From: Halioglobus sp. | Lineage (GTDB): Bacteria; Pseudomonadota; Gammaproteobacteria; Pseudomonadales; Halieaceae | DNA: 64,000 bases | Reading direction: 5' to 3' | NCBI GenBank assembly: GCA_034521205.1 | Contig: JAXHMT010000002.1 | Span: 37,896 to 101,895 of the forward strand | Shown here: in pieces, positions 21,913 to 61,572 of the stretch | Position numbering within the stretch: the stretch's first letter is position 1 | Layout of the letters: every line of letters begins with the position of its first letter | Program-made: the position numbers and the translations under genes | The notes under the pieces: model-generated | Told to the model about the DNA's origin: nothing | Database searches by the model: none | The model's input: only the letters and a program-made list of their open reading frames with translations

Positions 21913-22033
21913 GTCAAAGACTCCCGGATCGAAGAAATGGCGGCGAGGTCGACATATTTACATGCCGACCGTCCACCGGGCAACACATCAGCGAATGGAA
22001 AACAGCACCAGCGGTTGAGATCACAGCCCGAGC

Positions 22034-22166
22034 GAGGGGCGGTTACGGTGCACTGAAACCGTGTGGCGACAGGAGAGCCTGCCCTCTTTTTCGGGCACGT
22101 CGACCCGAGCCTGCACAGGGAGGTGCGCTTTTTGGCGTGTTTCAGTGCGACCGTATACCGCCCCTT
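22034..22166. repeat. Dispersed structured repeat (GGA-loop element), copy 1
   Basis: Outer IR TACGGTGCACTGAAAC / GTTTCAGTGCGACCGTA; inner GGCGAC-AGGA... and GCAC-AGGGAG-GTGC hairpins; homologous to 25.3-25.6 kb and 42.3 kb. Confidence 0.85.
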
Positions 22167-22344
22167 GCGACCCTCACTGGACCCGAGAACCCTGGCTGCG
22201 ACCTCATATGAGACCCCTGGTTGCGGCTTCATGTGAAAACACTGGAATCAACACACCGCCACCGGTCGATGCGGAATCGACAGACCTTCCCCCCTCGCCC
22301 GCGAACAAGCCGACGCCAACCAGTGTCGCTGCTCTGCTGTTGCC

Positions 22345-23631
22345 TTACAGCAGCCCCGCCAACAGAGTCGCCGTACCCAGAAAGGCAAAGAAACCCGACA
22401 CGTCGGTGACGGTCGTGAGAATAATGGAGGAGGCCGTGGCCGGATCCTGTCCCAGACGCGACAGCACCATGGGCACCAGTGCGCCGGAAATACCCGCCAT
22501 GACCATGGCGGTGACCATGGCGATGGCGATCACCAGCCCCAGCCCCGGCGACTGGCTCCACAGCCAGACGCCCAGGCCGCAGGTAATCGCCAACGCGACA
22601 CCGTTGATCAGGCCGATCTGCAACTCCTTGTTCATCACCGCGCGCCAGTGCAGCGTGCTGATCTCGCGCAGCGCCAGACCCCGCATGGTCACCGCCAGTG
22701 CCTGCGAGCCCGCATTGCCGGACTGTCCGGCGACCACCGGCAGCAGAATCGCCAGGGCGGTGAATTGCGCGATGATCGACTCGAACAGACCCACCACCGC
22801 CGCCGCCAGAAAAGCGGTGAGGAGATTGATATGCAGCCAGGGCAGACGGCGCTTCACCGCGAATAGCGGCGTGGACAGGGCGCGCTCGTCGGCGCTCGCG
22901 CCCACCATGCGCTGGATATCGGCGGTGGCGGCCTCTTCGGCTGCCTGGAACAGGTTGGCGTAGCGAATGATGCCGATCAGCCTGAAATCCTGGTCGACCA
23001 CGGGAATGGAGTCCACCCGGGAGCGATCAAACAGTTGCACCAGGTCTTCCTCGGTCGACGTGAGGGAAGCGACGTCCTCGACCGTGTTGAGCAGTTCCGA
23101 CATCGGCGTGTCGGGGTCCGCCAGCGCCATATCCTGCAGATCGACGCGCCCGGCCAGCACGTCGTTGTCGCTCACCACATACAGCGAGCGCACGCGCTGG
23201 GCCCTGGACTTGCGCAGGACCGACAGCGCTTCGCCGACGCTCTGGTCGATGTGGTAGCGCGCCAGCAGGCGCTCCATGAACCGGCCCGCGGTGCGTTCCG
23301 GCGACTGCAGAAGTTCCAGGTATTCCTGGCGCACGCGGGCAGGCAGGCGCGCCAGCGTGCCGTCGAGTTCCTCTTTTGTGAGGGCGCGCATGACTTGCAT
23401 CGCGGTGCGCACATTGGCCAGTTGCAGAACCTCTGCGCGGCGCGTCTCGTCCAGCGCCAGAAACAGTTCTCTCTGCCGGTGCGGCTCGACGTGCTCCAGC
23501 AACCGGGTGTAGGCCTCCGCCGACAACTCGTCCAGCCCGGTCGGCAGAGTATCCTGGGCCTCGACCGCCAGCGCCGCGTCCATCGGATGCGCCCGCACGT
23601 AGTAGTCGCGCAGTGTCTCCGGGAGGCTCAT
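22345..23631 (-). CDS. mgtE: Magnesium transporter MgtE
   Basis: MgtE_N, CBS pair, KRRLPWLHINL, PVVAGQSGNAGSQ, DPATASSIILTTVTDVSGFF. Confidence 0.93.
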   Translation of the reverse strand: MSLPETLRDYYVRAHPMDAALAVEAQDTLPTGLDELSAEAYTRLLEHVEPHRQRELFLALDETRRAEVLQLANVRTAMQVMRALTKEELDGTLARLPARVRQEYLELLQSPERTAGRFMERLLARYHIDQSVGEALSVLRKSRAQRVRSLYVVSDNDVLAGRVDLQDMALADPDTPMSELLNTVEDVASLTSTEEDLVQLFDRSRVDSIPVVDQDFRLIGIIRYANLFQAAEEAATADIQRMVGASADERALSTPLFAVKRRLPWLHINLLTAFLAAAVVGLFESIIAQFTALAILLPVVAGQSGNAGSQALAVTMRGLALREISTLHWRAVMNKELQIGLINGVALAITCGLGVWLWSQSPGLGLVIAIAMVTAMVMAGISGALVPMVLSRLGQDPATASSIILTTVTDVSGFFAFLGTATLLAGLL

Positions 23632-24440
23632 CGGGATTTTCCGAGCACCGACTCGACCACGCTGGCGCAGGCATTGAGGTAGCCGCCGGCCAGTTCTGTC
23701 AGCAGTTGTTCAAGATTGTATTCACGGGCCGTTGTGTTGCCCGCTGCCCGTTCCAGGGCGGCGCGGGTCACGATACCCAGCAGCCGATGCCTGGCGTCGA
23801 CCACGGGCAGTTCCGAATGGTTGAGCCACTGACGAGCGGTCAGCGCGCTCTCCACTCGCGTGAGGCCGTTGAGCGGTGACACCGACAGCGCAAAGTCAGC
23901 CAGCGGCCGCGAGCGGTTCTTGCGCGCGTAAACCGCCTGCAGATTGAGTCTTCCCAGGTAGCGGCCCTGCGCGTCCACCACCAGCACGGGCCGGGGCTTG
24001 TTGTCGGTACTGTTGGCCAGTTGCTCGGCGAAGTCGCCGCACAATGTCGCTGCGCTCACCCGGATGAACTCCGTGGTCGCAAAGGCGGCGACACTGTGCG
24101 CGGGGAAGTTGAACAGCTCCCGCAGGTCGGGGTGTGCGCGCTTTGGCGCGGCCTCGAGAACCGCCGGGTAAAGCGAGGTATGCAGGTGCGAAACCAGGGC
24201 GATGGCCTCGTCCGTGCGCGCGGCGATCAGCAGATCGGCGGTCAGCGCCGGTTCCAGGGTGCCCAGCAGTGTGGTGAGTTGCCAGCTGGCCAGGTGCGCC
24301 GCGACGCTTGCACCGACGCCGGGGGGCAGTGCCTGCAGCAGTTCGCACAGCTCGGACAAGTCCGCGTTCGACAGAACGGCCGCCATTTCCTGCGGCCGGC
24401 TGGAGGCGAACTGCAGTACCAGTGGGTCATGTTCCGGCAT
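23628..24440 (-). CDS. Soluble MgtE N-domain plus CBS-pair protein (no TM domain)
   Basis: Helical N-domain, two CBS repeats (VVDAQGRYLGRL; PVVDARHRLLGIVT); overlaps mgtE by 4 bp. Confidence 0.8.
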   Translation of the reverse strand: MPEHDPLVLQFASSRPQEMAAVLSNADLSELCELLQALPPGVGASVAAHLASWQLTTLLGTLEPALTADLLIAARTDEAIALVSHLHTSLYPAVLEAAPKRAHPDLRELFNFPAHSVAAFATTEFIRVSAATLCGDFAEQLANSTDNKPRPVLVVDAQGRYLGRLNLQAVYARKNRSRPLADFALSVSPLNGLTRVESALTARQWLNHSELPVVDARHRLLGIVTRAALERAAGNTTAREYNLEQLLTELAGGYLNACASVVESVLGKSR

Positions 24441-25209
24441 CGGCGTCCCCCTCGTCCGCGTCGCCGACGACGAGCAGCACTTCGGAGTCGACAAAGCGCG
24501 CGGTGGGTATGGTCAGCAGGCCGCGCTCCGTCTCCAGGATGATCGAGGTGCTGAGTATCTCGACGATCCTGCCGCTGCTGTTTCCGACGACGACGGTGTC
24601 GCCGACGCGGTAGCGGTCCAGCGCCCGGCGGGCCAGCAGGTTCTCCACCAGGGAGCGGCTGCCCAGGGCGAACGCCAGGGACAATCCGCCGAAGAAAAAC
24701 GCCAGCAGAATGACCATCACGTTGGAGATAAACGAGATATCGAATGCCGTCTGCGCCAGGCCGGTCAGTACCGCCGTGGTGATGACCAGCAATTGCGCCA
24801 GCCGCGGCACCAGATGGTCCGGTGCCACCCCCATCAGCCCGGCCAGCAGGGTGCGCACGACCACGCCAATGAGGTAGCCGGAGAGAATGATCAGTCCGCC
24901 CAGGATCAACTGGGGGACATGTTGCAGCAGAAGGTCCAGCCACTGCTGCACGACCGCGATACCGAGGGTTTGCAGCGCGGCGAGTACGAATATGAGAAGC
25001 AGGCCGTAGTACAGGCAGGCTGTCAGGGCGCGCCGCACCAGTGCCAGGTTCAGGCGTTCGAAACGTTGCGGCGCCGTGCGCCGCAGATAGCCTTCGAGGG
25101 CGATGAGCCAGCGCCTCAGCAATCTCGCGGCGAGTGCCGCGATAGCGAAACCCGCCAGCGCGATCAGCACCGCCAGTATTTCGGGATGGGCGCTGAAAAA
25201 TTCACTCAC
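24427..25209 (-). CDS. Small-conductance mechanosensitive channel family protein (TM-helix repeat type)
   Basis: Five TM segments; LSLAFALGSRSLVENLLA, YRVGDTVVVGNSSGRIVEI...LTIPT. Confidence 0.88.
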   Translation of the reverse strand: MSEFFSAHPEILAVLIALAGFAIAALAARLLRRWLIALEGYLRRTAPQRFERLNLALVRRALTACLYYGLLLIFVLAALQTLGIAVVQQWLDLLLQHVPQLILGGLIILSGYLIGVVVRTLLAGLMGVAPDHLVPRLAQLLVITTAVLTGLAQTAFDISFISNVMVILLAFFFGGLSLAFALGSRSLVENLLARRALDRYRVGDTVVVGNSSGRIVEILSTSIILETERGLLTIPTARFVDSEVLLVVGDADEGDADAGT

Positions 25210-25297
25210 CTTGAGCGGGCCTCCGCAGTGTTTTCGTGCATGTTAGCCGCAGGGAACGCCAAAGGCCATACCGTCATGGTGTGTGTCACATCGAATT

Positions 25298-25558
25298 GAA
25301 AGCAGTGCGTGAGCATGGGTTGGGTACGGCCCACTGGAACCGTGTGGCGACAGGAGAGCCTGCCCCTCTTTTTCGGGCACGTCGCCCCGCAAGCCTGCAC
25401 ACGAATGGTGGTGTGTGCTGCATCAGCTGGAAAGCAGTGCGTGAGCATGGGTTGGGTACGGCCCACTGGAACCGTGTGGCGACAGGACGTCGCCACCCGA
25501 GCCTGCACATGGAAGTGCGCTTTTTGGCGTGTTCCAGTGGGCCGTACCCAACCCATGC
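25298..25558. repeat. Tandem pair of the GGA-loop dispersed element (58-bp direct repeats; 27-bp inverted repeat)
   Basis: 25298-25355 equals 25430-25487; CATGGGTTGGGTACGGCCCACTGGAAC is inverted at 25531-25557. Confidence 0.9.
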
Positions 25559-25608
25559 GATTTCCATGCGGTAACAATTGAAACTGACGCACTACCGTGG
25601 CACAGGAG

Positions 25609-26160
25609 TTATGCACCGGTCCTGGGTTCGGCCGGGGGAGCGGGCGGCGGCGCAAATATTTTTTGCGGAAAATCCGTGTTGCCCCGGTCCAGCTTGATAA
25701 CCGGTTTCTGCAGGATCAGGGAATTGGGGTAGGTAACGATGTTCCCTGCAGGCGTGCGAATCAGCACGTGGAACAGGCTGATTTCCTCGACCGTGCCGGA
25801 GAGATCGAAATCGGCATCCGTCACCTTGATCGCGTCGCCCACCCGATAGGGAAAGCCGAAAAAGATAACCATGCTGGCGGTGATGTTGCTGAGGATGGAC
25901 CACTGGGCGAAGAAGGCGATGCCGACGACCGCGAAGGCGGAGGAGAGAAACAGGGACACGTCGCCGTAGCCCAGTCCCAGCACCAGGCAGACGACGAAGA
26001 CGAGCATGGCGAACAGCGCGATGTTGGTGGTCTTGAGCAGGTAATTGATACGCACCTGTGCAACATCCTTGAGCGCACCCAGGCGGCGGATAGCCATGCG
26101 GGCAGCGCGCAGCGCGAACAGGTAGACGGCAATACAGATCACGACGGACAGGATTTTCAT
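25609..26160 (-). CDS. MscS family mechanosensitive channel (short form)
   Basis: WSILSNITASMVIFFGFPYRVGDAIKV...GTVEEISLFHVLIRT...VTYPNSLILQK. Confidence 0.9.
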   Translation of the reverse strand: MKILSVVICIAVYLFALRAARMAIRRLGALKDVAQVRINYLLKTTNIALFAMLVFVVCLVLGLGYGDVSLFLSSAFAVVGIAFFAQWSILSNITASMVIFFGFPYRVGDAIKVTDADFDLSGTVEEISLFHVLIRTPAGNIVTYPNSLILQKPVIKLDRGNTDFPQKIFAPPPAPPAEPRTGA

Positions 26161-26272
26161 GGCTTCTTCCAGGCTCGAACAGTATCAGCGGCGTAGGACC
26201 GCGCCAGCGTCAGTATACAACGCGCGCAAAGGCGGGCCGCGATGGCAGGGTGATCCGGGTACCAGGGCTCGC

Positions 26273-27778
26273 TCATGCTTCCAGCGCGGCGATGATCTCG
26301 TTGCGCAGCGCCGCCGGGGAGATCACCCGGTCGAAGGCCATGGCGTCCGCGGCCACCCAGGCGCCGGACTGTATTTCCCGCAAACGCCCGGCCTCCTCCT
26401 CGCTCGCTTTCGCCGCCTCGGCGCCGCCGATCGCGGGCACGCCGCCGAGATTGACCGCCGGCAGGGCGAGGCTGACGACCTGGCGGTCCCAGGGGTTCAT
26501 GCCCATGACGGAGCTGCCGAAACCGAAGGCCTTGCGCAGCGTGGCGACAATCTTGCGGCCGCGATAGCGGCGCTGGGCGAGAAACATTGCGGCGGCGGCC
26601 TTGAGTACACCGTCGGCTTCGGCGGCGGGTCCGGGCATCACTCCCGGGTTGTCCACCAGGCTGATCAGCGGCAGATCAAAACGGTCGGCCACGCCGATGA
26701 AATGGGTGGCTTTTTCGGCGGCGGTCCGGGTGACCGCCCCGGCTTCCACCGCCGGCTGGTTGGCGATGATCATGCAGGGCGCGCCGCCGATGCGGGCGAG
26801 GGCGGCGATCAGGCTGCGCCCGTAGTCGGGTTGCAGTTCGAACAGGGATTGCGAGTCCACCAGCTCGGCGAGCACGTCGCGCATGTCGTAGGTCTGGTGC
26901 GCGTGGGGCGGTATGATTTCCAGCAGCCCGTCGAGAGAGCGCCGGGCTGCTGAGGGGCCGGTCGTGCGGGGAGGCGGGTCCCCGGCCCGGGCCGGCAGCA
27001 GCGAGAGAAAGTAGCGCGCCATGGCGAAGCAGTCCTGCTCCGTGTTGCCGATATTGTGCGCGACACCGCTGCGGGCTGTGTGCATTCGCGCGCCGCCCAG
27101 TTCCTCCGGTGTTGTCGCGATACCCAGCGCGGCCTGCACCAGTGGCGGCCCGGCGGAGAACATGGCGCTGCCCTCGGCCATGACGATGAGGTCGGCGAAC
27201 ATCCCGGTGAGGGCGCCGTGCCCCGCGGATGTCCCCAGTACCAGCGTTACCACCGGCGCCACCCCCTGCAGATCCGCCACCAGCTGCAGGTCGCCGGGCG
27301 CGTTGGGATAGCGCGCGGTCTGGTTGCCGGTGCGCTCGCCCGCACCATCCAGCATCAGCACCAGCGGCACCGCGCGTTCCAGCGCAAGCCGCACCAGTCG
27401 CGCCCGCTTGGCCGCGTTGGGGTGGCCGATGGAGCCGCCCTTCACGGTAAAGTCCTCGGCCAGTACCACTACCGTGCGGCCGTCGATGCGCGCGGTTCCC
27501 CCCACCAGGGCGTCCGCGGGCAGCGGGGCGCCGCCGGCGGGGTCCTGGCCGCCGGCGAGTGCGCCGTACTCGCTGAAACTGTTCCGGTCGCAGAGCGCCG
27601 CGATCCGCTGGCGCGCCGTGAGACGGCCGCGGCCGTGCTGCGCGCCGATCTTCTCCTCGCCGCCCATGCCCTCGGCGAAGCCGGTGCGTGACTGCAGTTC
27701 GTCGAGCAGGGCCTGCCAGCCCTCGCGGTGTGTGGCCAAAAGTCGGTGTCTCCGGTCAGGTATCCAGCCGCCAAACAT
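26273..27778 (-). CDS. Acyl-CoA carboxylase carboxyltransferase (beta) subunit; start uncertain (TTG 27739 has a GGAGA SD)
   Basis: GRLTARQRI, DFTVKGGSIG, LDGAGER, SAGHGAL, AGPPLV, ELGGARMH, VDNPGVMPG, LRKAFGFG. Confidence 0.92.
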   Translation of the reverse strand: MFGGWIPDRRHRLLATHREGWQALLDELQSRTGFAEGMGGEEKIGAQHGRGRLTARQRIAALCDRNSFSEYGALAGGQDPAGGAPLPADALVGGTARIDGRTVVVLAEDFTVKGGSIGHPNAAKRARLVRLALERAVPLVLMLDGAGERTGNQTARYPNAPGDLQLVADLQGVAPVVTLVLGTSAGHGALTGMFADLIVMAEGSAMFSAGPPLVQAALGIATTPEELGGARMHTARSGVAHNIGNTEQDCFAMARYFLSLLPARAGDPPPRTTGPSAARRSLDGLLEIIPPHAHQTYDMRDVLAELVDSQSLFELQPDYGRSLIAALARIGGAPCMIIANQPAVEAGAVTRTAAEKATHFIGVADRFDLPLISLVDNPGVMPGPAAEADGVLKAAAAMFLAQRRYRGRKIVATLRKAFGFGSSVMGMNPWDRQVVSLALPAVNLGGVPAIGGAEAAKASEEEAGRLREIQSGAWVAADAMAFDRVISPAALRNEIIAALEA

Positions 27779-28075
27779 ACGGGATGATTTTTCGCGGCAC
27801 AACGGTCCGGTCGGGGGTACGACCCGCATTGCGTGGACCGTCAGGACGCATCGCGGCTCAGGCGCCAGGCGCCGTGGCAGACGGAGAAACCGCTGCTCGA
27901 GGCAAAGCCGATGACGCTAGTGAGTGATTATTGTAGCAAGCACAGTATAGGTGTTTCGGGCCACCGCAAGGGCGCGCGAGGGGACGCCAGTGCGCCGGTC
28001 AGAGGCGGAAAACGTGAAAAATTACCCCTTTTGATGTATACTTTATGGATTCACTAACACATCAAAGGAACAGCC

Positions 28076-28264
28076 ATGCCACGCAAGCCCACTCGCGCCG
28101 CAGCCAAAAGAAAAGTGCCCGCCGCAGTAGAGACTTCCGACTCCATCGCTCAGCAAACCGCCGCCTTTCTGAAGGCCGGCAACAAGATCGATGTGATCGA
28201 TTCCGGTATCAGCGGGCAGGCCAGCATGGCGGTCAACAAGAACATCAAGCTCGGCAATCGCTAG
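28076..28264 (+). CDS. Small basic protein resembling SutA-like RNAP-binding proteins
   Basis: AAGGAA SD; IAQQTAAFLKAGNKIDVI..GISG pattern recalled from SutA-type domains. Confidence 0.5.
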   Translation: MPRKPTRAAAKRKVPAAVETSDSIAQQTAAFLKAGNKIDVIDSGISGQASMAVNKNIKLGNR

Positions 28265-28377
28265 CAGGAACATCGTGCCAGACAACCGTCATTAAACCGC
28301 GGTAATCCGGGGAGAGTGTACGCAATTCCCGCGCTCCCGGAATCAAGGCGGCCACGCTGAACGGGGACATTGTCCCC

Positions 28378-28449
28378 GAGATACAGAGTGTCCCCGGAAT
28401 GCAGAGTGTTCCCGGGTTTCCGGGTTTCTCCGGAATGCAGACGCTCCCC
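28378..28449. repeat. Degenerate 18-bp tandem repeat (GGAATGCAGAGTGTYCCC) x4
   Basis: Units at 28378, 28396, 28414 (divergent) and 28432, between convergent genes. Confidence 0.6.
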
Positions 28450-28454
28450 TGAAT

Positions 28455-30215
28455 TCAAAGTCTCAGGTCGACAATAACCGGGTTGTGGTCGGTCGACCGC
28501 CAGGGCTCGTTCGGGTCCGGACTCATGACGCCCTGGTAGCCGAGTGCCCGCGGCTCATCGGCATTCACCAGCCAGCTCCGGGCCGCAATGACACGGGGCC
28601 GGAGTTTTTCGCCGGCCAGGGCATAATCCAGAGAGCCTTTTTCGCCCCTGTACCGATAGGTGTAGTGGCGACAGTTGCTGTCCGTGCACGGATGGAACTG
28701 GTGAACCATGCTGGCGAATCCGGCTCTCGCCAGCACGGCGAGAGGTTGCTCGCGGGCGTAGCTGTTGAGATCGCCGACAATCAGGGTGCCCGCTGAACGA
28801 GGGTCGGCGGATGCGGTGCCGGACCAGCTGGCGAGTGCCGCGGCCTCGGCCGTTCGCCGGCTGGCGTAGCACCCCTGGCCGTCGGACTGGTCCCGCTCTT
28901 CGTCCCGGGCCCCACGGCAGGACTTGGATTTCAGGTGGGGGACAACGACCCTCACCGTATGCTCGCCGCCAGCGCGACGGAAATCCTGGGCCAGCGGCGG
29001 GCGACCCCTGAACCTGAAAGGACCGCCGGCCAGTCGTGCGGCCGGCCCGATGGCGACAACGCGGTCGGCGCGATACAGCAAACCGGTCCGGATGGCGTCG
29101 TCGCCATCCTCGCCGGGCGTACCGACAAACCGCCAGTGACTGCCCAGAGCCGCGGCCAGCGCGGCGATTGCGCTGTCCGGGCCGTAACCGTCGTTTTCCA
29201 GCTCCGTGACCGCGAGGATGTCCGGAACCGGGGCGAGTAGCGCCTCGATCAGCCGTTGTTGCTGTCGCTGAAACTGCGCCTTCGTCGCCGCGCCTCGCGG
29301 GGTCGGAAAGTCGCCGCCCCGGCCATCACCGTTAAAGTAATTGCCGAGATTCAGGGCCACGACCCGGACGGAATCGCCCGGCGGTGGCGGCGGTGCCGGT
29401 GTTCGCGGGTTGGTGCTCAGGAAGCGCGGCGCCCGGGCCGGCTGAATTCGCCAGGCACCAAAGCGGAAATCCAGGATACCGGCGAGCCCGTCGATCCGGT
29501 CGCCGGCCCGCACGGTTGCCGATGAAGAAGCCGCCGGCGGCCAGGGCAGGGGACGTGGATCGCGCAGGGACCGGTTGTCGTCCAGCAACACGCGATTGCG
29601 CCGGTTTGTGGCGGACTTGCGGTGCGCCGGGTTGCCGGGCGACAAATACTCGGTCGGCTGTACCTGATCCGAGGCCGCCAGAGCCAGCTCTCCGTAACGG
29701 GCGAGCTCAGCGTTGTCCACCACCGTCAGCGGCTGGCGGAAGGTGACCCGCATGTTTTCCAGAGTCTCCGGGTCGACGGTCCATGGCAATGCCAGGATGA
29801 CCGGCTCGGGCAGCGCAGCCGGGCCGCACAACCGGATTTCCCGCACGGCCACCAGTTCCGTCAGCCCATGGTATTCCTTCACCTTGCCGGTCACTCGCAG
29901 ACGCATGCCGGGTTCGCCCGCAGCGCGATCGGTGTACACAAAAAGCGCTTCGGAAGTGGCCGGGTCGCCGTCGGTCTCGCGGTCCGCCTGCTGCAGGTAG
30001 AAGCCGCCGAATGCGTTCTCCGAGCGCAAATCCCGGGTCAGAATGCCTTCCACGGTCACGGTCCGGCCAGTCAGGGGAGACGCCGGCCCATTGCCCTGGA
30101 CAGCGGATATCGGCGTCGCGGCATCGCCACAGGCCGATGCTGCCGTTGCCGCCATGGGCGGGAACGACAGAATCGGCAGGCAGAAATAGCAATACAGCTG
30201 TTTTTTCAAGCTCAC
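28455..30215 (-). CDS. ExeM/NucH family extracellular endonuclease
   Basis: Signal peptide; ISAVQG.G.ASPL.G..VTVEG OB-fold; NLGNYFNG, HLKSK, GDLNSYA.E.P, SLDY, RSTDHNPV. Confidence 0.92.
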   Translation of the reverse strand: MSLKKQLYCYFCLPILSFPPMAATAASACGDAATPISAVQGNGPASPLTGRTVTVEGILTRDLRSENAFGGFYLQQADRETDGDPATSEALFVYTDRAAGEPGMRLRVTGKVKEYHGLTELVAVREIRLCGPAALPEPVILALPWTVDPETLENMRVTFRQPLTVVDNAELARYGELALAASDQVQPTEYLSPGNPAHRKSATNRRNRVLLDDNRSLRDPRPLPWPPAASSSATVRAGDRIDGLAGILDFRFGAWRIQPARAPRFLSTNPRTPAPPPPPGDSVRVVALNLGNYFNGDGRGGDFPTPRGAATKAQFQRQQQRLIEALLAPVPDILAVTELENDGYGPDSAIAALAAALGSHWRFVGTPGEDGDDAIRTGLLYRADRVVAIGPAARLAGGPFRFRGRPPLAQDFRRAGGEHTVRVVVPHLKSKSCRGARDEERDQSDGQGCYASRRTAEAAALASWSGTASADPRSAGTLIVGDLNSYAREQPLAVLARAGFASMVHQFHPCTDSNCRHYTYRYRGEKGSLDYALAGEKLRPRVIAARSWLVNADEPRALGYQGVMSPDPNEPWRSTDHNPVIVDLRL

Positions 30216-30439
30216 GGCGACAGTTTAGGGCCCGCGCAAGAATAATTCCCGTTTTTTTGGGGCGTCGAGGCGCCTGCCTGGCAAGGCGCGAGGAGGGCGC
30301 ATAGCGCCACTATGCAACCGACGAGCAACGCAGCCAGGCAGGATGCATCGGCGGCCCAAATCGGGAACTTATTCTTGCGCGGGCCCTTAGCCGAGACCGC
30401 CGGCAGCTTCCCGTGCTTGTGCATGTCTGTCGGCTTTAC

Positions 30440-32250: not shown

Positions 32251-32399
32251 GTCAAAATCATCGCGATAGCTCGCGATCCATGGCTGCAGGCGATCCCGCG
32301 ATTTGACGCAAGGATCGGTCAGCGCGGTCATGGAAGCCTCTAGCGCGCCTGACCTCGGCATTCAGGTCAGCGCACGATGAGGTAGCAGGGGGCTGAGCC

Positions 32400-33560: not shown

Positions 33561-34199
33561 AAGCGTAGCCAGATTGTCATCTATCGACGCGCTAACAACA
33601 TTACACGAAAGAAAAAGCGCCGTTAGAAAAACCGTCGAGCGCCGGCTCGCCAGAACGCCTAGTGCAGTTCGACTTCTTCATCCCTGATCTCGGAAACCGC
33701 TATGGGAATCCTCATTCCTTCTGCGTTGATGTATCTGACGAAGGCCCTGGCCGACCTGCAGCAATTCAAAGGCAGCCTGACTGCCGCCAAGCAGCTTCAT
33801 TCCCCCAGGAAACATAAGCGGGTCAAAATCATAGCGGTATTCACTGATAACGGCCTGGCGTTCTACCAGATGCGTTGCGGGGATAAAGACGATTGACTCC
33901 AGCACGGTGTTCCTCATCAAGTTCGGCAGAGGTGTCCAAGTATAGATATCGTCTTCCTTCGCAACCAGTATTTACGTCTTTTTTACGTCTTTTTCGACTT
34001 TTTTGACAATAACATGCCCCCAATCACGGTTTTCCTCGCGTGCGCTGTGACAGTTGCCATGCCGAACAGCCGGTGAGCCAATGGATGCTGAGCATCCCGT
34101 TTCCATTGCGCTTCTTGTTCGCGGCCCGCCCGAGATCATGGGCCGAGTGCTGGGCATTACGCGATTGTGCCGGTTTGTGGCGGACCTGCGCGCGCCGGG

Positions 34200-35339
34200 C
34201 TGCCGGGTGACAGGTATGCGGTCGGTTGTACCTGATCCGAGACCGCCGGCAGCATCCGCGATGCATCGCCGGATGCATGGGGCCGCCGTGTGATACTGAA
34301 TCGGCAATTTGGCGTGAAGCATGGATATCCTGATGGCCCGGAACTCTCCGAGATCGGGTTTCTGCTGGAATCGGGGTCCGACCGAATCGGAGCTCTCGAC
34401 TTCCAACTATCTCCGACGAGCTATGAGCCTCGCTCGCACGTAAATGCGACGCTGGATGAGCTTCTGGAGTCAGCGCACCGCGTAGAAGAGGGCATTCCAC
34501 TGACCGCCGAACTCGACCAGGCACTGCATCGTGGCAGCTCCATCGGGGGCGCACGTCCCAAGGCACTCATAGACGACGGTGACGTCAAGCACGTCGCCAA
34601 ATTCTCATCAACCTCGGACACTTACAGTGTCGTCAAGGCTGAATTCATTGCCATGCGTCTCGCGTCGCTGACTGGCATCAATGCGGCACCGGTGTCCCTG
34701 GTGTCTGCTTCCGGGAAGGATGTTCTGCTTATTGAGCGGTTTGATCGTGTCAAGGCTGAAGATGGCTGGCAGCGAAGACTCATGGTCTCGGCACTGACGC
34801 TGCTTGAACTGGACGAGATGATGGCGCGCTACGCAAGCTATTCCGAGCTTGCGCAGATCATCCGACACCGCTTTGCCGATCCATCCGGGACATTGGCGCA
34901 GCTATACAGCAGAATTGTCTTCAATATCCTTTGCGGGAACACTGATGATCATGCGCGAAACCACTCAGCTTTCTGGGACGGTGAATCCCTGAGCCTGACG
35001 CCGGCATACGATCTCTGCCCTCAGTCCCGTTCCGGCCGGGAAGCCAGTCAGGCAATGCTGATTTCGCCGGATAACCGCATGAGCCGCATTGCCACCTGTA
35101 TCGGGGCGTGCCATTTTTTCCTACTCTCGTCCGATGATGCGATACGGATCGCGGAGGCACAGCTTCGATGTATTGGTGAAAACTGGCGGGCCGTGTGTGA
35201 TGAAGCAGGTCTGGGCGAAACAGAGCGGAATAGGCTCTGGGGACGCCAGTTTTTGAACCCTTACGCCTTCACTGAACTCGATGGCGAGGCCGCACGGATC
35301 GCCAGGCTCGCTGAAGATATTCAGGCCTCGGCAGGTTAG
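34200..35339 (+). pseudogene. hipA: HipA family Ser/Thr kinase toxin, N-terminus truncated or scrambled
   Basis: PDAWGRRVI upstream of the called start; SIGGARPKA, VAKFSS, KAEFIAM, LLIERFDR, GNTDDHARNH, LTPAYD. Confidence 0.85.
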
Positions 35340-35437
35340 GCCTACTCAAGGCCGCCATCCCCCGCAGGCCCAGATGACGATGGCGCGTATAACCACCGCA
35401 ATCTATGCAATGATGCCGTGGGGGCAATCGATGTCGT

Positions 35438-36487
35438 TCAGCGCTCCCCGCCCAACGGCAGATAGAACTGCTCGTACCAGCGGCGCAGCTTGTTGATGGG
35501 GCCGTCGCCGTCGCACAGGATGGGGTCGGCGCGGTAGATCTTGTCCTTCCAGATCTCGACATCCTGCCCGAAGGCGATGTGGGCGACCTGCGGATACATC
35601 TGCAGGAATTCCTCGGGCAGCGGTCGCTCGTCCAGGCTGCTGACGATGACCGCCGAGCACAGATCCAGCTCGCGCTCATCGACCGGGGTATGGCAGTTCA
35701 CCCACCAGCTGCGAAAACTCACTTCCGGGCTTCTCGACTCGGTGTAGTAGTACATGATCGACGGCCCGTGGTAGGTGGCGTCGCCCCAGGCGTCGGATTC
35801 CCCGCCGGCGGTCTCCTCGCGCATGGCCTCCAGGTCGAAGGGCACTCCCGGCGGGATGATCATCTTCGCGTCGGGATCGCGGTCCACCGTGGATACCTGC
35901 GTCACGGTGCGCTCCGTGAAGCGGTTTTCCCATTTGCGCACAGAGCCGGCGTGCACGTGGGGGAAGTGAGCGATATCGACAATGTTCTCGATCACGTCAC
36001 AGGGGCGGGCGCGAATACGCGAACGGTAGAACTGCCAGTCGCCCCAGCCGTCGTCTCCCCACACGTCGATGTCGGGGAGGTAGTCCTCCGTCGGGTTGCC
36101 GTCGGGGTCGTACCACATGGCGATAAAGCCGTTTTTCTCCAGTACCGGCCAGGCCCGCAGTGCGTTCAGCGCTCTGTCCGGAATGGCGCTGGCGTAGGGA
36201 ATATCCACGCAGCGGCCCTGCCGGTCGAAGGTCCAGCCGTGAAACGGGCAGGCGATGTGATCGCCGCAGACACGGCCCTCGCCGCTGGCCAGATGGGCCC
36301 CCAGGTGCGGGCAGTGGGCGTCGAGCACGCCCACCTGTCCGGAATCGCCGCGGTAGGCAACCAGGTCGCGGTCGAAGTAGCGCAGGGCCTTCACCTCGCC
36401 GGCGGCCAGCTCCTTCGAGAACAGCACGATATGCCAGCCGCGGGCGAAGCTGCCGGGCTCGAGAAACGCGTACCTGTAATCACTCAT
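35438..36487 (-). CDS. kshA: Rieske non-haem oxygenase, KshA (3-ketosteroid 9-alpha-hydroxylase) type
   Basis: CPHLGAHL and CPFHGW Rieske; ENIVDIAHFPHVH; DVEIWKDK...LCDGDGPINKLRRWYEQFY. Confidence 0.82.
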   Translation of the reverse strand: MSDYRYAFLEPGSFARGWHIVLFSKELAAGEVKALRYFDRDLVAYRGDSGQVGVLDAHCPHLGAHLASGEGRVCGDHIACPFHGWTFDRQGRCVDIPYASAIPDRALNALRAWPVLEKNGFIAMWYDPDGNPTEDYLPDIDVWGDDGWGDWQFYRSRIRARPCDVIENIVDIAHFPHVHAGSVRKWENRFTERTVTQVSTVDRDPDAKMIIPPGVPFDLEAMREETAGGESDAWGDATYHGPSIMYYYTESRSPEVSFRSWWVNCHTPVDERELDLCSAVIVSSLDERPLPEEFLQMYPQVAHIAFGQDVEIWKDKIYRADPILCDGDGPINKLRRWYEQFYLPLGGER

Positions 36488-36488
36488 A

Positions 36489-38257
36489 TCATGGGGTTCC
36501 CGCGTCGGATTGGTCGAATGCGTGCAGCGCCGCGAGGTAGGCGAAGGTCATCGCCGAACCGATGGTCGCGCCGGCGCCCGGATAGGTGTCGCCCATCGCG
36601 GCGGCGCTGGCATTGCCCGCGGCGTACAGTCCCGCAATGGGATCGCCGGCATCATTCAGTACCCGGCCGTGTTCGTCGCACAACAGCCCTCCCTTGGTGT
36701 CCAGGTCCCCCGGCTCGCAGCGCATGGCATAGAAGGGTGGTTCGTCCAGCGGCGCCAGGGAAGGGTTGGGTTTGACCCTGGGGTCGGCGTAGTAGCGGTC
36801 GTGTTCCGTGGCGCCGCGCTTGAACTGCGGATCCTCGCCGCGGCGGGCGTGTTCGTTGAAGCGCGTAACCGTCTCGACCAGTGCCTGGGCCGGCATGTCC
36901 AGTTTTTCCGCCAGTGCCGGCAGGGAATCGGCCCGTGTGAGCAGCCCGCTGTCGAAATTCTCGGGAGCCACCTGGCGGTCGGTCTCGACCTTGCCAGGCT
37001 TGATGTGGCCGACGGCGTATTTGCGGCGGTAGGCCGCATCGAACACAAGATAACAGGGGATCGCCCGCTCGCCGCGGGCATGTGCGGCGTACTGGGCCTT
37101 GACCAGGTCCTCGTAGGGCTGGGCCTCGTTGGCGAAACGCCTGCCCTCGCCGGACACCATGATGGAACCGGGATTGGATTTGCCGGCAATCAGCGCCAAC
37201 ACGCGCCCGTCGGGAATCGTATAGGTGGGCGACCACCAGGCGCACGGCATGAAGCCCAGTGCCGCGCCGACTTCCTGCCCCAGGGTCACCGCGTCACCGG
37301 TTGCCCCGGGGGCGGAGGCCGTCCAGTCGGCGCCAATGGGCGCCTGCTGATACTGGCGGCGCATGGCGGCATTGCGGGAAAAGCCACCGGTGCCCAGCAG
37401 GACGCCGCGGCGGGCGCGAATGCGTCGGGCCGAGCCCTCATGGCGCACGACCGCGCCCAGGACACGACCCTCACCGGTGATCAGCGTTTCCATCGGCGCG
37501 TTCAGCCACAGGGGAATATCCCGGTCCATCAGCGAGCGCCGCAGGCGCGCGACAAGCGCGGGGCCCAGGCAGATGCGGTTGTCCCGCTGCCGCCGCAGCC
37601 GCGCCGGCAGATCCAGCCAGTAGCGCAGCAGCAGGGCGGCGCCCGTGGTCAGCGTGCGCAGGTTCATCGCCTGCAGCCGCTGTCCCTCGGCGATGGTGAT
37701 ATTGAAGGGCAGGAGCAGGCCGTCGTAGTGCGCGATGCGAATGTGCCGCGCCTCCTCGCCGAGGGCGCGCAGGCTGAACGGCTTGTTGTCCATGGAGCGG
37801 CTGCCGGATTGTAACCCGCGACGTTCTCGTAGTAATCCATGTAATTGGGGATGGCGCTGTAATCGACGCGGCTGTGCCGCATCATGAATTGCAGCATTTC
37901 CCGCGCCCGCTCGGCGTAGGCGCGGACCCGGGCATCCGGCACCGACTCGCCGATCAGTCCCTTGAGGTAGCTGTAGCCTTCCGCCACCGTGTCGGCGATG
38001 CCGGCCTGTGCCTGGCGGTGATTGGCGGGTACCCAGGCAACGCCGCCCGATTTGGCGGTTGTGCCGCCGTACAGGGATTCCTTTTCCACCACCAGTACAG
38101 TGCCGCCCAACTGGTGCGCCACCACCGCGCCGGTCATGCCGGCGGCTCCCGCACCGGCGACCAGCCAGTCTACTTCCAGATCCCAGTCCAAATTCGTACC
38201 CGTGTGGTTGCCCGGGCCCCTCGGCCCGTTGGCGACTGCGCAGTGTGGCAGGGCCAT
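36489..38257 (-). pseudogene. kstD: 3-ketosteroid-delta1-dehydrogenase-like FAD oxidoreductase, frameshift near 37810
   Basis: AGAGAAG, GGTTAKSGGVAWVPAN, GTGGF, GRRFANEA, DLDTKGGL, GLYAAGN, YPGAGATIG. Confidence 0.82.
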
Positions 38258-38379
38258 CGTCCCCGAATCCAGTGGCTTTCCCAATTGGCACACCACAGTT
38301 CAATATTCCGGCCGCGGCAGTTGACCGCGCAACGCGCCCGCCCTACTGTTCCGGACATGCTCAACGACCCGGTTCATTC

Positions 38380-39399
38380 ATGATGCAGATTCCCCAGGCC
38401 AGAATTCACGCCGTCGACGATCTGCGACTGGATACCATTGCACCTCCCGAGTGCGGGCCCGACGATGTCGTCGTCCGGGTACGCCAGTGCGGCATCTGCG
38501 GATCCGATCTCTCTTATCTCGCCATGGGCGGTATCGCGGCCCCCGATACACCGATGCCGATCGGCCACGAACTGTGGGGCGAAATCGGCGAAGCCGGTGC
38601 CAACGTCACGCACGTCGCCGCCGGCGATCGCGTGGTCGTTCAGCCTCTGTGCAACGATACCAATATCGGCAACGGCGGCAGCGAGGGCGGTTTCACGCCG
38701 CTGTTGCTGGTGCGCAACGCCGCAAACAATCCCGACAGCGTGATCAAACTGCCCGACGATCTGCCCGTCGCGTACGGGGCCCTGGTGGAACCGCTGGCGG
38801 TGGCGCAGCACAGCGCCAATCGTGTCATGGCCGCGCCGACCGACAGGGCCGTGATCTACGGCGCGGGCCCGATCGGGCTGTCCATCCTGCAGGTCCTGAA
38901 GTACCGTGGTCTCGAGGATATCGTGGTGATAGACCTGTCGCCGCTGCGTCTGGAGACCGCTGCCGGGCTGGGGGCGGTGGCGCTGCGCGGCGACGATCCG
39001 GAACTCGCGCGGCAACTGATCGATATTCACGGCAGCGCCGACTTCTTCGGGCTGCCCATGCCCGCCAGCACGCTGTATTTCGAGGCCACGGGAGCGCGTT
39101 CGGTGTTCGAGGGGATGCTCGACGTCGCCGGTCCCGGCAGCCGCATTTGCCTGACGGGAGTGCACAAGGAGCCGGCCACACTGGATCTGGTAATGTTGCT
39201 GGCCAAGGAGATATCCCTGGTGCCCGCCCTGGCTTACGCCGGGGAATTCGCTGAGGTGATTGACATGCTGGGCTCCGGCGCGATCGATCCGTCGGTGATG
39301 GTCACCCATGAGTTCCCGCTCTCGAACATCGACAGCGCCTTTGCCACCGCGCGCGATACGGGCAGGGCCATCAAGGTGATTGTCGACTGCCAGGCCTGA
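38380..39399 (+). CDS. Zn-dependent alcohol dehydrogenase (MDR)
   Basis: CGICGSD, GHE, VGDRV-like, VEPLAVA, GAGPIG; lacks the structural-Zn Cys cluster. Confidence 0.92.
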   Translation: MMQIPQARIHAVDDLRLDTIAPPECGPDDVVVRVRQCGICGSDLSYLAMGGIAAPDTPMPIGHELWGEIGEAGANVTHVAAGDRVVVQPLCNDTNIGNGGSEGGFTPLLLVRNAANNPDSVIKLPDDLPVAYGALVEPLAVAQHSANRVMAAPTDRAVIYGAGPIGLSILQVLKYRGLEDIVVIDLSPLRLETAAGLGAVALRGDDPELARQLIDIHGSADFFGLPMPASTLYFEATGARSVFEGMLDVAGPGSRICLTGVHKEPATLDLVMLLAKEISLVPALAYAGEFAEVIDMLGSGAIDPSVMVTHEFPLSNIDSAFATARDTGRAIKVIVDCQA

Positions 39400-39430
39400 G
39401 GCGAACCGTTTCGTAGACAAGGAAGAACCC

Positions 39431-40255
39431 ATGCAGAATCTACAGTCCAAAGTCGCCGTCGTGACCGGCGCCGGTTCGGGCATCGGCGAGGGCATAGCGC
39501 GCGCCGCGGCGGCCGCGGGCATGCGGGTCGTCGTCGCCGATATTGACCTGGAGGGCGCCCGGGCGGTTGCCTCGGACATCGGCGAGAGCGCGTTCCCCTG
39601 CCGGGTCGACGTATCCAGTCTCGCGTCCGTGGAGGCGATGCGCGACACCGCATTGGAGCAATTCGGGGCGGTGCACCTGCTGTGCAACAACGCCGGCGTC
39701 TGGGTCGGCGCGTTGATGATCGATGCGGACATCAAGGACTGGCAATATCTGATCAGTGTGAACCTCTACGGTGTGATCCACGGTGTGAAAGCCTTTCTGC
39801 CGTTGCTGGCCGAGCAGGGGGAGGGCCACATCGTCAACACCGCCTCCATGGGCGGCCTCATTTCCGGGCCGCCGGAAGGCTTGTACACCACCACCAAGTT
39901 CGCGGTGGTCGGCCTGTCCGAATCTCTGGCGATGGAAGTTGCCGAGCTGGGCGTCGGTGTGTCCGTGCTGTGCCCGGGCCTGGTCGATACGCGACTGACC
40001 ACGAAGTCCTTCGAGGTGCGGCCGCCGGAGATGGATCCGGGTATCGATCACGGTCATGCCGGCCCCGATACGGCCAGCGGCATCCCGCCGCGTGTGGTCG
40101 GCGATCGCGTGATCGATGCGGTGCGCGAGGGCGAGTTCTATATCATCACGCACGATGACTACCGGGATATCATCGCCATGCGGCACCAGAACATCATGGA
40201 TGCGCTGGACAAGCACGTGCGGCGCTACGGTTCGACGTCGGGGCGTGAACTATGA
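39431..40255 (+). CDS. Short-chain dehydrogenase/reductase
   Basis: TGAGSGIG, NNAG, NTAS, YTTTK, CPG. Confidence 0.93.
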   Translation: MQNLQSKVAVVTGAGSGIGEGIARAAAAAGMRVVVADIDLEGARAVASDIGESAFPCRVDVSSLASVEAMRDTALEQFGAVHLLCNNAGVWVGALMIDADIKDWQYLISVNLYGVIHGVKAFLPLLAEQGEGHIVNTASMGGLISGPPEGLYTTTKFAVVGLSESLAMEVAELGVGVSVLCPGLVDTRLTTKSFEVRPPEMDPGIDHGHAGPDTASGIPPRVVGDRVIDAVREGEFYIITHDDYRDIIAMRHQNIMDALDKHVRRYGSTSGREL

Positions 40256-42151
40256 ACAGCAATGCACTGAGTGTTTTGATTCTCGCGCTGGCCCTGTTGA
40301 GCGGCGAAGCGTCCGCCGGCGTCGACTACACCGAGGAGCGCCAACCCTGCGTCCACCGGGACCCGTTGCGCCAGCCCTTTTTCGGCGACCTGCACGTCCA
40401 CACCCGCTATTCGCTGGATGCCAGCACACAGGGCACGCGCACGAGTCCGGACGAGGCATACCGTTTCGCCCTGGGCGCCAGAATTGGTATTCAACCCTGG
40501 ACCGACGAGGGCGAAGCCCTGCGCTCGTTGCAACTGCGCCGCCCGCTGGATTTTGCCATGGTCTCCGACCACGCGGAGCTGATCGGCGAGGTCTCCATGT
40601 GCACCACGCCGGGGGCGCCGGGCCACGATTCCTGGCAGTGCCGTCTCTACCGTTACTGGCCGCGCGGGGCGTACTACCTGTTCAATTTCTATTCCTCCAT
40701 GCGCGCGTCCCACCTCGGCCTGTGCGGCGAGGACGACGAGTTGTGTCTGCGGGCGGCGCGCGTGCCCTGGCTGGAAATGCGCGCAGGCCGCGGAGGCGCA
40801 CTACGACCGCAGCGCCGAGTGCTCCTTCTCCACCTTCGTCGGCTACGAGTGGACGGGTGTCGAGCCCGGCTCGGGCGGCAACCTGCACCGCAACGTGGTA
40901 TTCCGCAACGCGGCGGTGCCCGAACTGCCGGCCAGTTACATCGACGAGCCCGACCACGAGCGGCTCTGGCAGGCCCTGGAAGATCAGTGCATCGGTGCGC
41001 CGGGGCCTGCGACTCCCTGGTCATTCCCCACAATTCGAACCTCAGCGCCGGCGCATATGTTTGCCGGGCCGCGGGACACGGACGTACCGATCACGCGCGA
41101 GTACGCCGAGCGGCGCCGCCGCTTCGAGCCTCTGATGGAAATCATGCAGCACAAGGGCACCTCCGAGTGCTACTACGCGGCGGGTGTGACAACGGACGAG
41201 CTGTGCGCATTCGAACAGATGGCCAGGGACAACATCGCCATTCTCGCCAATCCGCCGCAACCGGACACGGGTTTTGCGCGCGAAACGCTGGCAGAGGGCC
41301 TGCGCCTGGAACAGGAGCTCGGCGCCAATCCCTATCAGTTCGGCTTTGTCGCCAGCACCGACACCCACCTGGGAACGCCGGGGGCTGTCGAGGAAGATCG
41401 CTTCCTCGGCCACGGCGGCGCCGGTGTTCCCGCGCGCAAGCGGGTACCGCCGGGGCTGCCGGATTTCCTGGAATACAATCCCGGCGGACTGGCGGTGATC
41501 TGGGCCGAGGAAAACAGCCGCGACGCGCTGTTCGATGCGCTGCGCCGCCGCGAGAGCTACGGCACCAGCGGGCCGCGCATCCGGGCGCGGTTTTTCGGCG
41601 GCTGGGACTATGCCGACGACCTGTGTTCCCATCCCGAGCGCGTCGAACAGGCCTACGCCGGCGGTGTGCCGATGGGCGGCGAGCTGCAGCCGGGGCCGCA
41701 GGGGCCGCCGCGATTCATGGTGGCCGCGAGTCAGGACCCCGGCACGTCGGAGAAACCCGGTACGCCGCTGCAGCGCATCCAGATCATCAAGGGACAGGTG
41801 GATGCGCAGGGCGAGTACACGGAGCGCGTTATCGATGTGGCGGGCGACCCGCGCAACGGCGCGTCGGTCGATACCGGCACCTGCGAGAGGCGGGGCGAGG
41901 GCTTTGCCCAGTTGTGCACAGTGTGGACCGACGAGGCGTTCGATCCGGGCGAGCGCGCCTACTACTACGCGCGTGTGGTGGAGAACCCCACCTGCCGCTG
42001 GAGCCAGCGCATGTGCGTCGCCAACGGGGTCGACTGCAGTCGTCCCGAGACCATCGGCAAGGGGTTCGAGGGCTGTTGCGCCGACGAGCACAGGCCGGTT
42101 ATCCAGGAGCGGGCCTGGACATCGCCGATCTGGTACTCACCGGACAGTTGA
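40252..42151 (+). pseudogene. DUF3604 exported PHP-like protein, frameshifts near 40785 and 41015
   Basis: FGDLHVHTRYSLDA, DFAMVSDHAE, YEW, NLHRNVVFR, PHNSNLS, STDTH, YGTSGPRI, IQERAWTSPIWY. Confidence 0.88.
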
Positions 42152-42261
42152 GCCCGCGGCAGCGCTTCAGCATGGATGCCCGGCCCGCGCGGTCGTAATT
42201 GCGGACGCCGTCGACGATCATGCCGATTTTGGAATTGTGCCCGGAGCGTCGGAAGGCGCGC

Positions 42262-42347
42262 GCTCTCCCTGGAACCGTGCGGCGACAGGACGTCGCCGCC
42301 CGAGCCTGGCCAGGGAGGGCCGCTTTTTGGCGTGTTCCAGGGAGAGC
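42262..42347. repeat. Dispersed GGA-loop element, copy between convergent genes
   Basis: 14-bp perfect IR GCTCTCCCTGGAAC / GTTCCAGGGAGAGC enclosing GCGGCGAC-AGGAC-GTCGCCGC and GGCC-AGGGAG-GGCC. Confidence 0.88.
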
Positions 42348-42410
42348 ATACCCTCCTGACGCTGCAACTCCGACAAAAATTCGAAATGAGCCACTACCAT
42401 GCAGTCGGGA

Positions 42411-61517: not shown

Positions 61518-61572
61518 GTAAGCTGGCCAGCGGCTCAACGGCTGGAATCAATGGTTTGTATCGGAACACAGT

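Follow-up and report, generated by a model that had tools for sequence, protein, structure and literature searches.

We analysed a 64,000-nucleotide stretch of the Halioglobus sp. assembly GCA_034521205.1 (contig JAXHMT010000002.1, positions 37,896 to 101,895; hereafter the window), which carries four copies of a dispersed repeat with a long predicted stem and two small hairpins at its tip. We consider it likely that this repeat is a non-autonomous foldback transposon, that is, a transposable element of the miniature inverted-repeat kind (MITE), of the Halieaceae, and that its tip is a strand-specific module acting in cis, DNA being the more likely form of the single strand concerned. A reading made from the letters of the window (the sequence-only reading) had proposed a mobile element, either a MITE or of the repetitive extragenic palindrome (REP) kind, whose RNA would recruit or titrate CsrA. 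The four copies lie where that reading had placed them, and the stems and loops it quoted read as stated.

Anatomy, spread and mobility of the unit

Alignment of the flanks shows that the repeated unit extends ~55 nt past its conserved core on both sides, giving a full unit of 181-183 bp from terminus to terminus, without a reading frame. The terminal inverted repeats (TIRs), GGTAGTGNCTCA... (GGTAGTG(T/G)CTCA(G/T)TTTG... / ...CAAA(C/A)TGAG(A/C)CACTACC), occur in both of the outer-stem subfamilies that dominate the host genome (89 and 46 copies), and the same terminus was found in a copy from another genus. Most copies have degenerate termini, with both ends kept in only 15-20. From TIR to TIR, window copies C and D measure ~183-190 bp, and copies that have acquired one or two of the short inserts described below reach ~206 and ~231 bp, respectively.

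The consensus fold has three parts: an outer helix of ~33 bp (P1), hairpin 1 and hairpin 2. In the prediction, hairpin 1 has an 8-bp stem and the loop AGGAC, and hairpin 2 a 4+4-bp stem with a CU bulge and the loop A-N-GGA-N, followed by UUUGG, so that the tip forms a three-way junction in which two hairpins show GGA in their loops. P1 drifts freely in sequence through complementary changes, only its pairing being kept, and it carries a tip of 58 nt that hardly varies between genera (ACCGTGYGGCGAC-AGGAC-GTCGCCRC-CCGAGCCTG-NNC-A-N-GGA-N-GNN-CGCTTTTTGGCGTGT). What makes this layout unusual is that invariance falls on a folded three-way-junction tip of defined strand and not on the ends of the transposon.

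A profile of the 72-nt core (nhmmer) identified 194 copies that do not overlap, among them 174 of full length; they lie on both strands and on all large contigs of the host genome (4.40 Mb, 63% G+C, seven contigs). An exact 28-mer from the core is found at no fewer than 75 loci in public genomes, all from Halieaceae (Haliea, Halioglobus and other isolates or metagenome-assembled genomes [MAGs]) except for one on a contig binned as archaeal. This last copy (L028:996-1067, Nitrosopumilaceae MAG) has an outer stem that is not complementary, and the contig is probably a mis-binned piece of a Halieaceae genome. With a covariance model built from 12 copies, we searched 101 sampled genomes of the Halieaceae, from 40 genera, and detected the element in 72 of the genomes and 29 of the genera (genomes with many copies being counted only as at least 35). 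Several genomes of the same genus hold 0-4 copies, compared with ~194 in the host. No copy was found in 12 genomes from other families of the order, nor any match in plasmid and phage collections. The Rfam search that the sequence-only reading had suggested returned no matching family: Rfam 15 gave no window match at gathering scores and only chance-level matches in E-value mode. Likewise, we found no description of the element in the literature on Halieaceae repeats or on MITEs together with CsrA.

Several observations show that the unit has transposed. Direct repeats of 8 bp abut the termini in 15 of the 20 copies that could be tested (at least 6 of 8 positions identical), 14 of which reach 7 or more. 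Controls offset by 1-2 bp read "23 to 26 of 8 identical", the exception being one 8/8 at shift +1. One orthologous site is informative: two Halioglobus MAGs are filled (~195 nt inserted) and a third is empty, with flanks ~80% identical; the two resident copies have arms that are unrelated to each other but fully paired. At this site (L048:6290-6610, L050:3090-3410 and, for the empty genome, L077:2790-2915), the MITE lies in sense, ~10-20 nt upstream of where a conserved gene has its ribosome-binding site and ATG; the product of this gene begins M..REFDV(I/V)VWGATGFTG. Three more pairwise alignments of putative orthologous sites were uninformative, except that a copy in another genus (L011) showed the same terminus and a duplication matching at 6 of 8 positions. 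TIRs, 8-bp target site duplications (TSDs) and an empty site in a related genome together identify a true MITE.

The unit moves as a whole, since its arms almost never occur without the core: 435 of 468 arm matches adjoin a core, and most of the 33 without a core nearby come from copies that were truncated or have an internal deletion. On the same ground we rejected, for the host genome, a scenario in which the core had inserted into older palindromes.

How copies evolve in place could be followed in one paralogous pair and one orthologous triple, because the window flanks have no DNA-level orthologues: in 30 relatives, only repeats gave matches. The pair lies in a 7.7-kb segmental duplication, inverted, on different contigs and 91% identical (C4:1789389-1797013 and C6:251826-259271), with the MITE at the same position in both. 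Its two copies agree at 71 of 73 core positions, compared with 65-76% identity in arms and termini and 75-80% in the flanking intergenic DNA, and their arms have decayed without compensation. A rare variant of hairpin 2 is shared by both, which speaks against this part having been converted recently. Among the 15 dated copies, mismatches between the two target duplications number 12 in 120 positions (5% per site per lineage), and departures from consensus at the invariant core sites 6 in 836 (0.7%). Between the two filled MAGs, the core is 97% identical, the flanks ~80% and the arms ~55%, yet each arm pair is complementary; such diverged but paired arms may result from independent insertion at a hot spot, exchange of tracts between copies or fast paired change. 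Altogether, these few cases suggest selection or homogenisation acting on the tip, and no protection of the stem in place.

We further looked for a transposase that could mobilize the unit. None of the candidates in the host genome (repeats from a genome self-BLAST, an ISL3-family element, an IS4-like element and a 1.8-kb repeat) has ends more similar to those of the MITE than shuffled sequences. The ISL3-family insertion sequence (IS; Pfam PF01610) is present in three copies (C3:225922-227337, C3:1014278-1015705 and C4:1254780-1256207), one of which has a clean 8-bp duplication, AAAAAAGA; its transposase frame may be disrupted, as the longest reading frame recovered has 262 aa. The IS4-like element, 1.33 kb long and also in three copies (C4:819106-820439, C4:503816-505158 and C4:905544-906872), has ends CCACTGCTGTCCGGTTAA..., an 8-bp duplication, ATCTGGTA, and a degraded frame with no Pfam match.

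The host also encodes three Y1_Tnp transposases of the RAYT/IS200-like kind (L002:1402-2200, L003:1293-2115 and L004:1269-2312, at C4:1758179, C6:60969 and C3:419023 in its own genome), with the nearest element copy 5.9, 17 and 25 kb away. Tightly around each gene lie inverted repeats of its own, TGGGGTCAGAGTC..., which are 20-30 nt long, follow the pattern TGGGGTCAG(A/G)(G/T)TC... and form a separate small system unrelated to the MITE. An association with RAYT genes was rejected, as no copy lies within 5 kb of any Y1 gene and the flanking repeats differ. Of the earlier proposal of a REP- or MITE-like mobile element, the MITE part is therefore retained on TIRs, 8-bp TSDs, the empty orthologous site and burst-like copy numbers, and the link to a RAYT, which had been suggested as something to look for, is not.

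Covariation, strand polarity and orientation

Pairing was assessed on 72 copies from ~15 genomes, against 500 shuffles and controls in which the structure was slid along the alignment. Paired cells amount to 97.6%, compared with 74.7% in shuffles, and cells changed on both sides number 820 versus 231. The covariation score of 0.61 (0.16 shuffled) was reached by none of the 500 shuffles, and structures slid by 1-3 columns score 0.08-0.10. Of the 33 pairs of P1, 30 covary, as do two pairs of hairpin 2 and one of hairpin 1. Among nearest-neighbour copies of the host genome, we counted 241 full Watson-Crick-to-Watson-Crick double changes against ~90 single disruptions. The covariation noticed in four copies thus persists in a larger alignment; the outer stems do differ among copies while staying complementary, over a paired length of ~28-33 bp rather than the 9-11 bp first quoted. 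Compensatory changes are also common in REPINs, which are mobile palindromes too (PMC3116915), so covariation alone is no proof of RNA function. On our analysis, it would be expected of any foldback mobile DNA that needs pairing to multiply.

The mismatches tolerated in the outer stem reveal a strand polarity. In the host genome, G:T-type mismatches outnumber A:C-type ones 109 to 32; counted as distinct events, the figures are 28 and 10, by nearest-neighbour comparison 45 and 12, and across genomes 68 and 11. At the junction, wobble pairing is conserved at two positions (U.G in 71 of 72 copies, G.U in 70). When 55 copies were folded as RNA, the GGA strand was more stable than its complement in 51 of the 54 that differed. 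The GGA strand is thus the one kept foldable, in keeping with the sequence-only reading. Symmetric mutation cannot explain an excess of G:T in elements that are randomly oriented, which implies that a single strand of fixed polarity matters.

We then examined how the copies are placed relative to genes and to replication. Nearly all (191 of 194) are intergenic, with 80 in 570 divergent, 98 in 2627 tandem and 13 in 566 convergent regions; per kb, divergent (promoter) regions are four times as dense in copies as convergent ones. Orientation is random relative to neighbouring genes: 46 same and 52 opposite in tandem regions, 59 sense and 65 antisense to genes reading towards the element, and 90 sense and 105 antisense within 250 nt upstream of a start codon. 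Relative to replication, the GGA strand is found on the G-rich strand, i.e., the lagging-strand template, in 121 copies versus 73 (p = 7e-4). This bias is stable over windows of 20-400 kb and present in both leading and lagging gene contexts. As orientation ignores transcription and follows replication, the data favour a role of the fold at the level of DNA or of the element itself over a role in mRNA.

The window copies and a 24-nt insert

All window copies have the GGA strand on the plus strand, with covariance-model E-values from 1e-16 to 1e-30; the orientation of surrounding genes is taken from our own codon-usage gene calls. Copy A (22031-22169) comprises the long outer stem and the core (nhmmer core 22053-22145; 76.4 bits, E = 1.8e-16), with degenerate termini beyond the stem. 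Its hairpin 1 is split by an insert and damaged in its 3' arm (GTCGACC), and its hairpin 2 is GCAC-AGGGAG-GTGC (22113-22126). The insert (22075-22097, plus strand, 23 nt, GAGCCTGCCCTCTTTTTCGGGCA) lies directly 3' of the hairpin 1 loop GGA at 22072-22074.

Copy B (25278-25405) is a left half only, with the left terminus, left arm, an insert-bearing hairpin 1 and the start of hairpin 2 (nhmmer match to model positions 1-53). It arose by a 132-bp tandem duplication with copy C (repeat family D4: 25277-25355 and 25409-25487, 91% identical, spacing 132). Its insert (25356-25379, plus strand, genome position C2:63248-63274) is 24 nt long, GAGCCTGCCCCTCTTTTTCGGGCA, and follows the loop GGA at 25353-25355. 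Copy C (25407-25596) is complete from terminus to terminus, with the core at 25466-25537 and the right terminus ...ACTGACGCACTACC. Hairpin 1 spans 25476-25496 (GGA 25485-25487) and hairpin 2 25505-25518 (GGA 25511-25513), the outer stem is a 28-bp perfect inverted repeat, and the covariance-model score is 129.3 bits (E = 3.5e-30). Its minimum-energy fold is the three-way junction, at -87.8 kcal/mol. Copy D (42216-42398) belongs to subfamily B and measures 183 bp, with the core at 42269-42340, a degenerate left terminus and the right terminus TGAGCCACTACC, whose last base is 42398 (104.4 bits). It has GCGGCGAC-AGGAC-GTCGCCGC as hairpin 1 and GGCC-AGGGAG-GGCC as hairpin 2.

The hairpin 2 variants in the window are as first quoted. 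The description of hairpin 1 with an AGGAC loop fits copies C and D (GYGGCGAC-AGGAC-GTCGCCRC) but not A and B, where inserts of the form GAGCCTGCCC(C)TCTTTTTCGGGCA, 23 or 24 nt long, split the loop right after GGA. Copy A is flanked by minus-strand genes (20713-21912 and 22345-23631), with its GGA strand antisense to both, and copy C lies between the minus-strand genes 24427-25209 and 25609-26160; the earlier caveat that the GGA strand is antisense at 22 and 25 kb was therefore right for A, B and C, all of which lie between minus-strand genes. A consensus scan over 21.8-25.8 kb, which contains these three copies, found no promoter-like sites. Copy D occupies a convergent intergenic gap, in sense to the upstream gene 40895-42151. 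Other repeats of the window, i.e., tandem arrays with periods of 21 and 42 nt (61093-61537) and a coding repeat with a 21-nt period (11273-11434), are unrelated to the MITE.

The 24-nt insert of copy B occurs 44 times in the host genome, always inside the element, in the same orientation, nearly invariant and directly 3' of a loop GGA. It follows the GGA of loop 1 in 26 cases and that of loop 2 in 17, and seven elements carry it in both loops; three copies show a deletion between the two insert positions. In the predicted fold, its CCU pairs with the GG of GGA, masking the motif in ~40 loops. The insert is absent from seven other genomes of the genus that were sampled and recurs in other genera (L098:1501-1524, L095:1501-1524 and L094:1501-1524): after the loop 2 GGA in L098, after ...GTCGA in the loop of a different REP-like hairpin in one genus, and after ...TGTACA in another. 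It resembles the linker and hairpin 2 of the element itself (GAGCCTG...CTTTTT...GGC) minus the hairpin apex. In the host genome we found neither a longer parent of the insert nor a larger element ended by its two halves. Judging from these sequences, the insert would behave like an independent micro-element aimed at hairpin loops.

CsrA and the competing explanations

The case for CsrA lies in the loops. Every one of the 67 uninterrupted 72-nt cores in the host genome has GGA in both loops, and both N positions of loop 2 are fully degenerate, with counts of T16/G32/A6/C13 and A5/T23/C25/G14; across genomes, GGA is found in 72 of 72 hairpin 1 loops and 71 of 72 hairpin 2 loops. The GGA loops noticed earlier thus recur well beyond the window. 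Hairpin 2 reads C-A-N-GGA-N-G everywhere and, in most genomes, GCACAUGGAUGUGC or GCACAGGGAUGUGC (ACAUGGAUGU or ACAGGGAUGU). The consensus selected by CsrA in vitro (SELEX, systematic evolution of ligands by exponential enrichment) is RUACARGGAUGU, with ACA and GGA invariant and GGA in a hairpin loop (PMC4347634). At the position of the first A of ACA in the host hairpin 2 (position 42), 31 of 67 copies have A and 35 have C; hairpin 1, ACAGGACGU, is one base short of the consensus spacing.

The host genome has one csrA gene, and genome-wide it yields no Rfam match for CsrB, RsmZ or RsmY. A crude scan for GGA-dense intergenic windows found tandem repeats only and no Csr decoy; those repeats (C4:815541-815929 and C6:230122-230306, with units such as GCGGGGATGACGGAGTAGC and the 9-nt CCGAC(T/G)GAG) look like simple satellites rather than small-RNA genes. 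Since hairpin 2 nears the SELEX consensus and csrA is present, we expect that sense RNA of the element would bind CsrA in vitro. As a selected function, CsrA binding is rather disfavoured, because of the random orientation relative to genes, the patchy distribution, the loss of ACA in half of the copies and the inserts that mask GGA.

In the explanation that we propose, the unit is a MITE whose 8-bp TSDs are the footprint of a staggered-cut (DDE-type) transposase acting in trans. The tip would act in cis as a module that is read, folded and single-stranded, by a protein recognising both GGA loops. This strand would more likely be DNA, at the replication fork or during transposition, than mRNA, because orientation ignores transcription and the GGA strand is more often on the lagging-strand template. 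Covariation would then arise mostly in proliferating lineages, where multiplication is limited to copies whose stem is paired and whose tip is intact, and where copies may also exchange tracts; host selection on individual resident copies would not be its source. Where a copy is transcribed in sense, its RNA would show two CsrA-type sites, a plausible side effect.

Several points weigh against this explanation. No autonomous partner was found in the host genome, the only one searched, nor any pair of termini 0.6-5 kb apart or enclosing a gene; the resident ISL3 and IS4-like elements also make 8-bp TSDs, but their ends are not significantly similar to those of the MITE (shuffle p = 0.07-0.9). 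Ordinary MITEs conserve their termini and not their centre, so that a role for the tip is something we infer. A staggered-cut transposase normally needs no single-stranded fold, and strand polarity and replication bias fit 8-bp duplications awkwardly; the replication bias is itself moderate (62%). Conservation of the tip in place rests on one paralogous pair and 15 dated copies, and gene conversion could explain it as well as selection. Finally, hairpin 2 of most genomes is very close to the CsrA SELEX consensus, which keeps an RNA-level reading alive.

Such a reading would make the element an RNA module that recruits or titrates CsrA through two GGA hairpins ~26 nt apart in sense transcripts, the ~194 copies serving as a distributed sponge or placing neighbouring genes under Csr control. 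Invariant GGA with variable flanking bases, the near-consensus hairpin 2, a GGA strand kept foldable, a csrA gene with no recognisable CsrB, RsmZ or RsmY, the one orthologous insertion in sense just upstream of a ribosome-binding site and the core kept in place in the paralogous pair all speak for it. We nevertheless hold it to be unlikely: copies show no sense bias to flanking genes in any context, those scanned in the window have no sigma-70-like promoter, three of the four window copies are antisense to their neighbours, and orientation tracks replication, not transcription. Moreover, the element is absent or nearly so in many genomes of the same genus and family that surely use CsrA too, half of the host hairpin 2 copies have not kept ACA, and ~40 loops contain an insert whose CCU pairs with the GG of GGA. 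RNA-level roles of another kind have been proposed for Correia, enterobacterial repetitive intergenic consensus (ERIC) and REP elements, and the unit might similarly be a host-domesticated structural element whose 33-bp stem and hairpin 2 plus U-run work in transcripts of either orientation, as an RNase III target, transcript stabiliser or weak terminator for which the tip is kept. Both strands fold very stably (-89 and -86 kcal/mol), hairpin 2 with CTTTTTGG after it was flagged as terminator-like, copies are intergenic and the core is conserved in the paralogous pair. However, terminator-like matches are no commoner than in shuffles (3 versus 2.4), and convergent 3' regions are poor, not rich, in elements. 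The stem of the paralogous pair has decayed uncompensated and its tip has been preserved, whereas a role as RNase III target or stabiliser predicts the reverse; with a distribution that is also patchy across the family, we regard this role as quite improbable.

The polarity of the fold and the preference of the GGA strand for the lagging-strand template, as in IS608-type elements, would suit a REPIN/REP-type element moved as single-stranded DNA by a Y1 transposase (RAYT or IS200/IS605-like) that recognises the hairpins, cutting within or next to a GGA loop. The genome has three Y1_Tnp genes, the 24-nt insert sits exactly 3' of the loop GGA, as if the loop had been nicked, and REPINs show compensatory changes too. 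Yet Y1 transposases make no duplications, while this unit has TIRs and 8-bp TSDs, no copy comes within 5 kb of a Y1 gene, and those genes have their own unrelated repeats, TGGGGTCAGAGTC..., on either side; there is accordingly little chance that this explanation holds.

Like the element, the Correia (NEMIS/CREE) repeats of Neisseria and the ERIC/IRU repeats of enterobacteria are non-coding, high-copy intergenic foldbacks of ~100-180 bp with TIRs and target duplications, occur in both orientations and form long hairpins when transcribed; neither family has sequence similarity to it. Correia elements make TA duplications and have their best conserved sequence at the ends, unlike the present unit, which duplicates 8 bp and has an invariant centre (the 58-nt tip) with hypervariable but paired arms. 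IS200/IS605 elements such as IS608 and ISDra2 would share with it an active form that is strand-specific folded DNA. They favour the template of the lagging strand, and their insertion falls precisely 3' of a short target, which parallels the 24-nt insert 3' of the loop GGA; unlike the unit, they make no target duplication, carry their own TnpA and have subterminal hairpins, and 24 nt are too few to carry both of their ends. The CsrB, RsmY and RsmZ decoys and CsrA-bound leaders display GGA in hairpin loops, as the predicted fold of the element does, hairpin 2 of most genomes being close to RUACARGGAUGU, and its two sites, ~26 nt apart, are within the range bridged by one CsrA dimer. In contrast to these RNAs, it is a ~194-copy transposon in random orientation and not one regulated gene with a promoter and terminator, has only two GGA loops per unit and matches no Rfam Csr/Rsm model. 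REPINs and REPs are, like it, dispersed palindromes in hundreds of copies with compensatory changes (PMC3116915), thought to act as single-stranded hairpins of defined strand. The unit differs from REPINs in its TIRs and 8-bp duplications, without linkage to the three Y1 genes, and its architecture is the reverse of theirs, since they conserve two REP ends and vary the middle; it also differs from REPs in being enriched in divergent and depleted in convergent regions.

These findings leave us with three questions: why a transposon that makes duplications should follow the replication strand; which protein, CsrA or a transposition factor, reads the single-strand GGA loops; and what places an invariant 24-nt piece exactly after GGA in several genera and at least two repeat families. 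Improbable as this is, the element may even be a transposon of the whole family with two high-affinity CsrA hairpins as its selected payload. Bursts of transposition would then scatter CsrA sites through promoters and leaders and rewire the Csr regulon. Without a recognisable CsrB/RsmZ-type RNA, the copies together could form a distributed CsrA sponge, and the 24-nt insert, by pairing with GGA, would be a switch that silences individual sites.

The element is the first described high-copy MITE of the Halieaceae, the abundant coastal OM60/NOR5 bacteria. Its long stem shows some of the strongest compensatory variation that can be found in a bacterial genome, and R-scape-type evidence alone would miscall it as a structured RNA gene. 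It thus stands as a warning case that strong covariation, together with loops resembling protein-binding sites, can arise in selfish foldback DNA.

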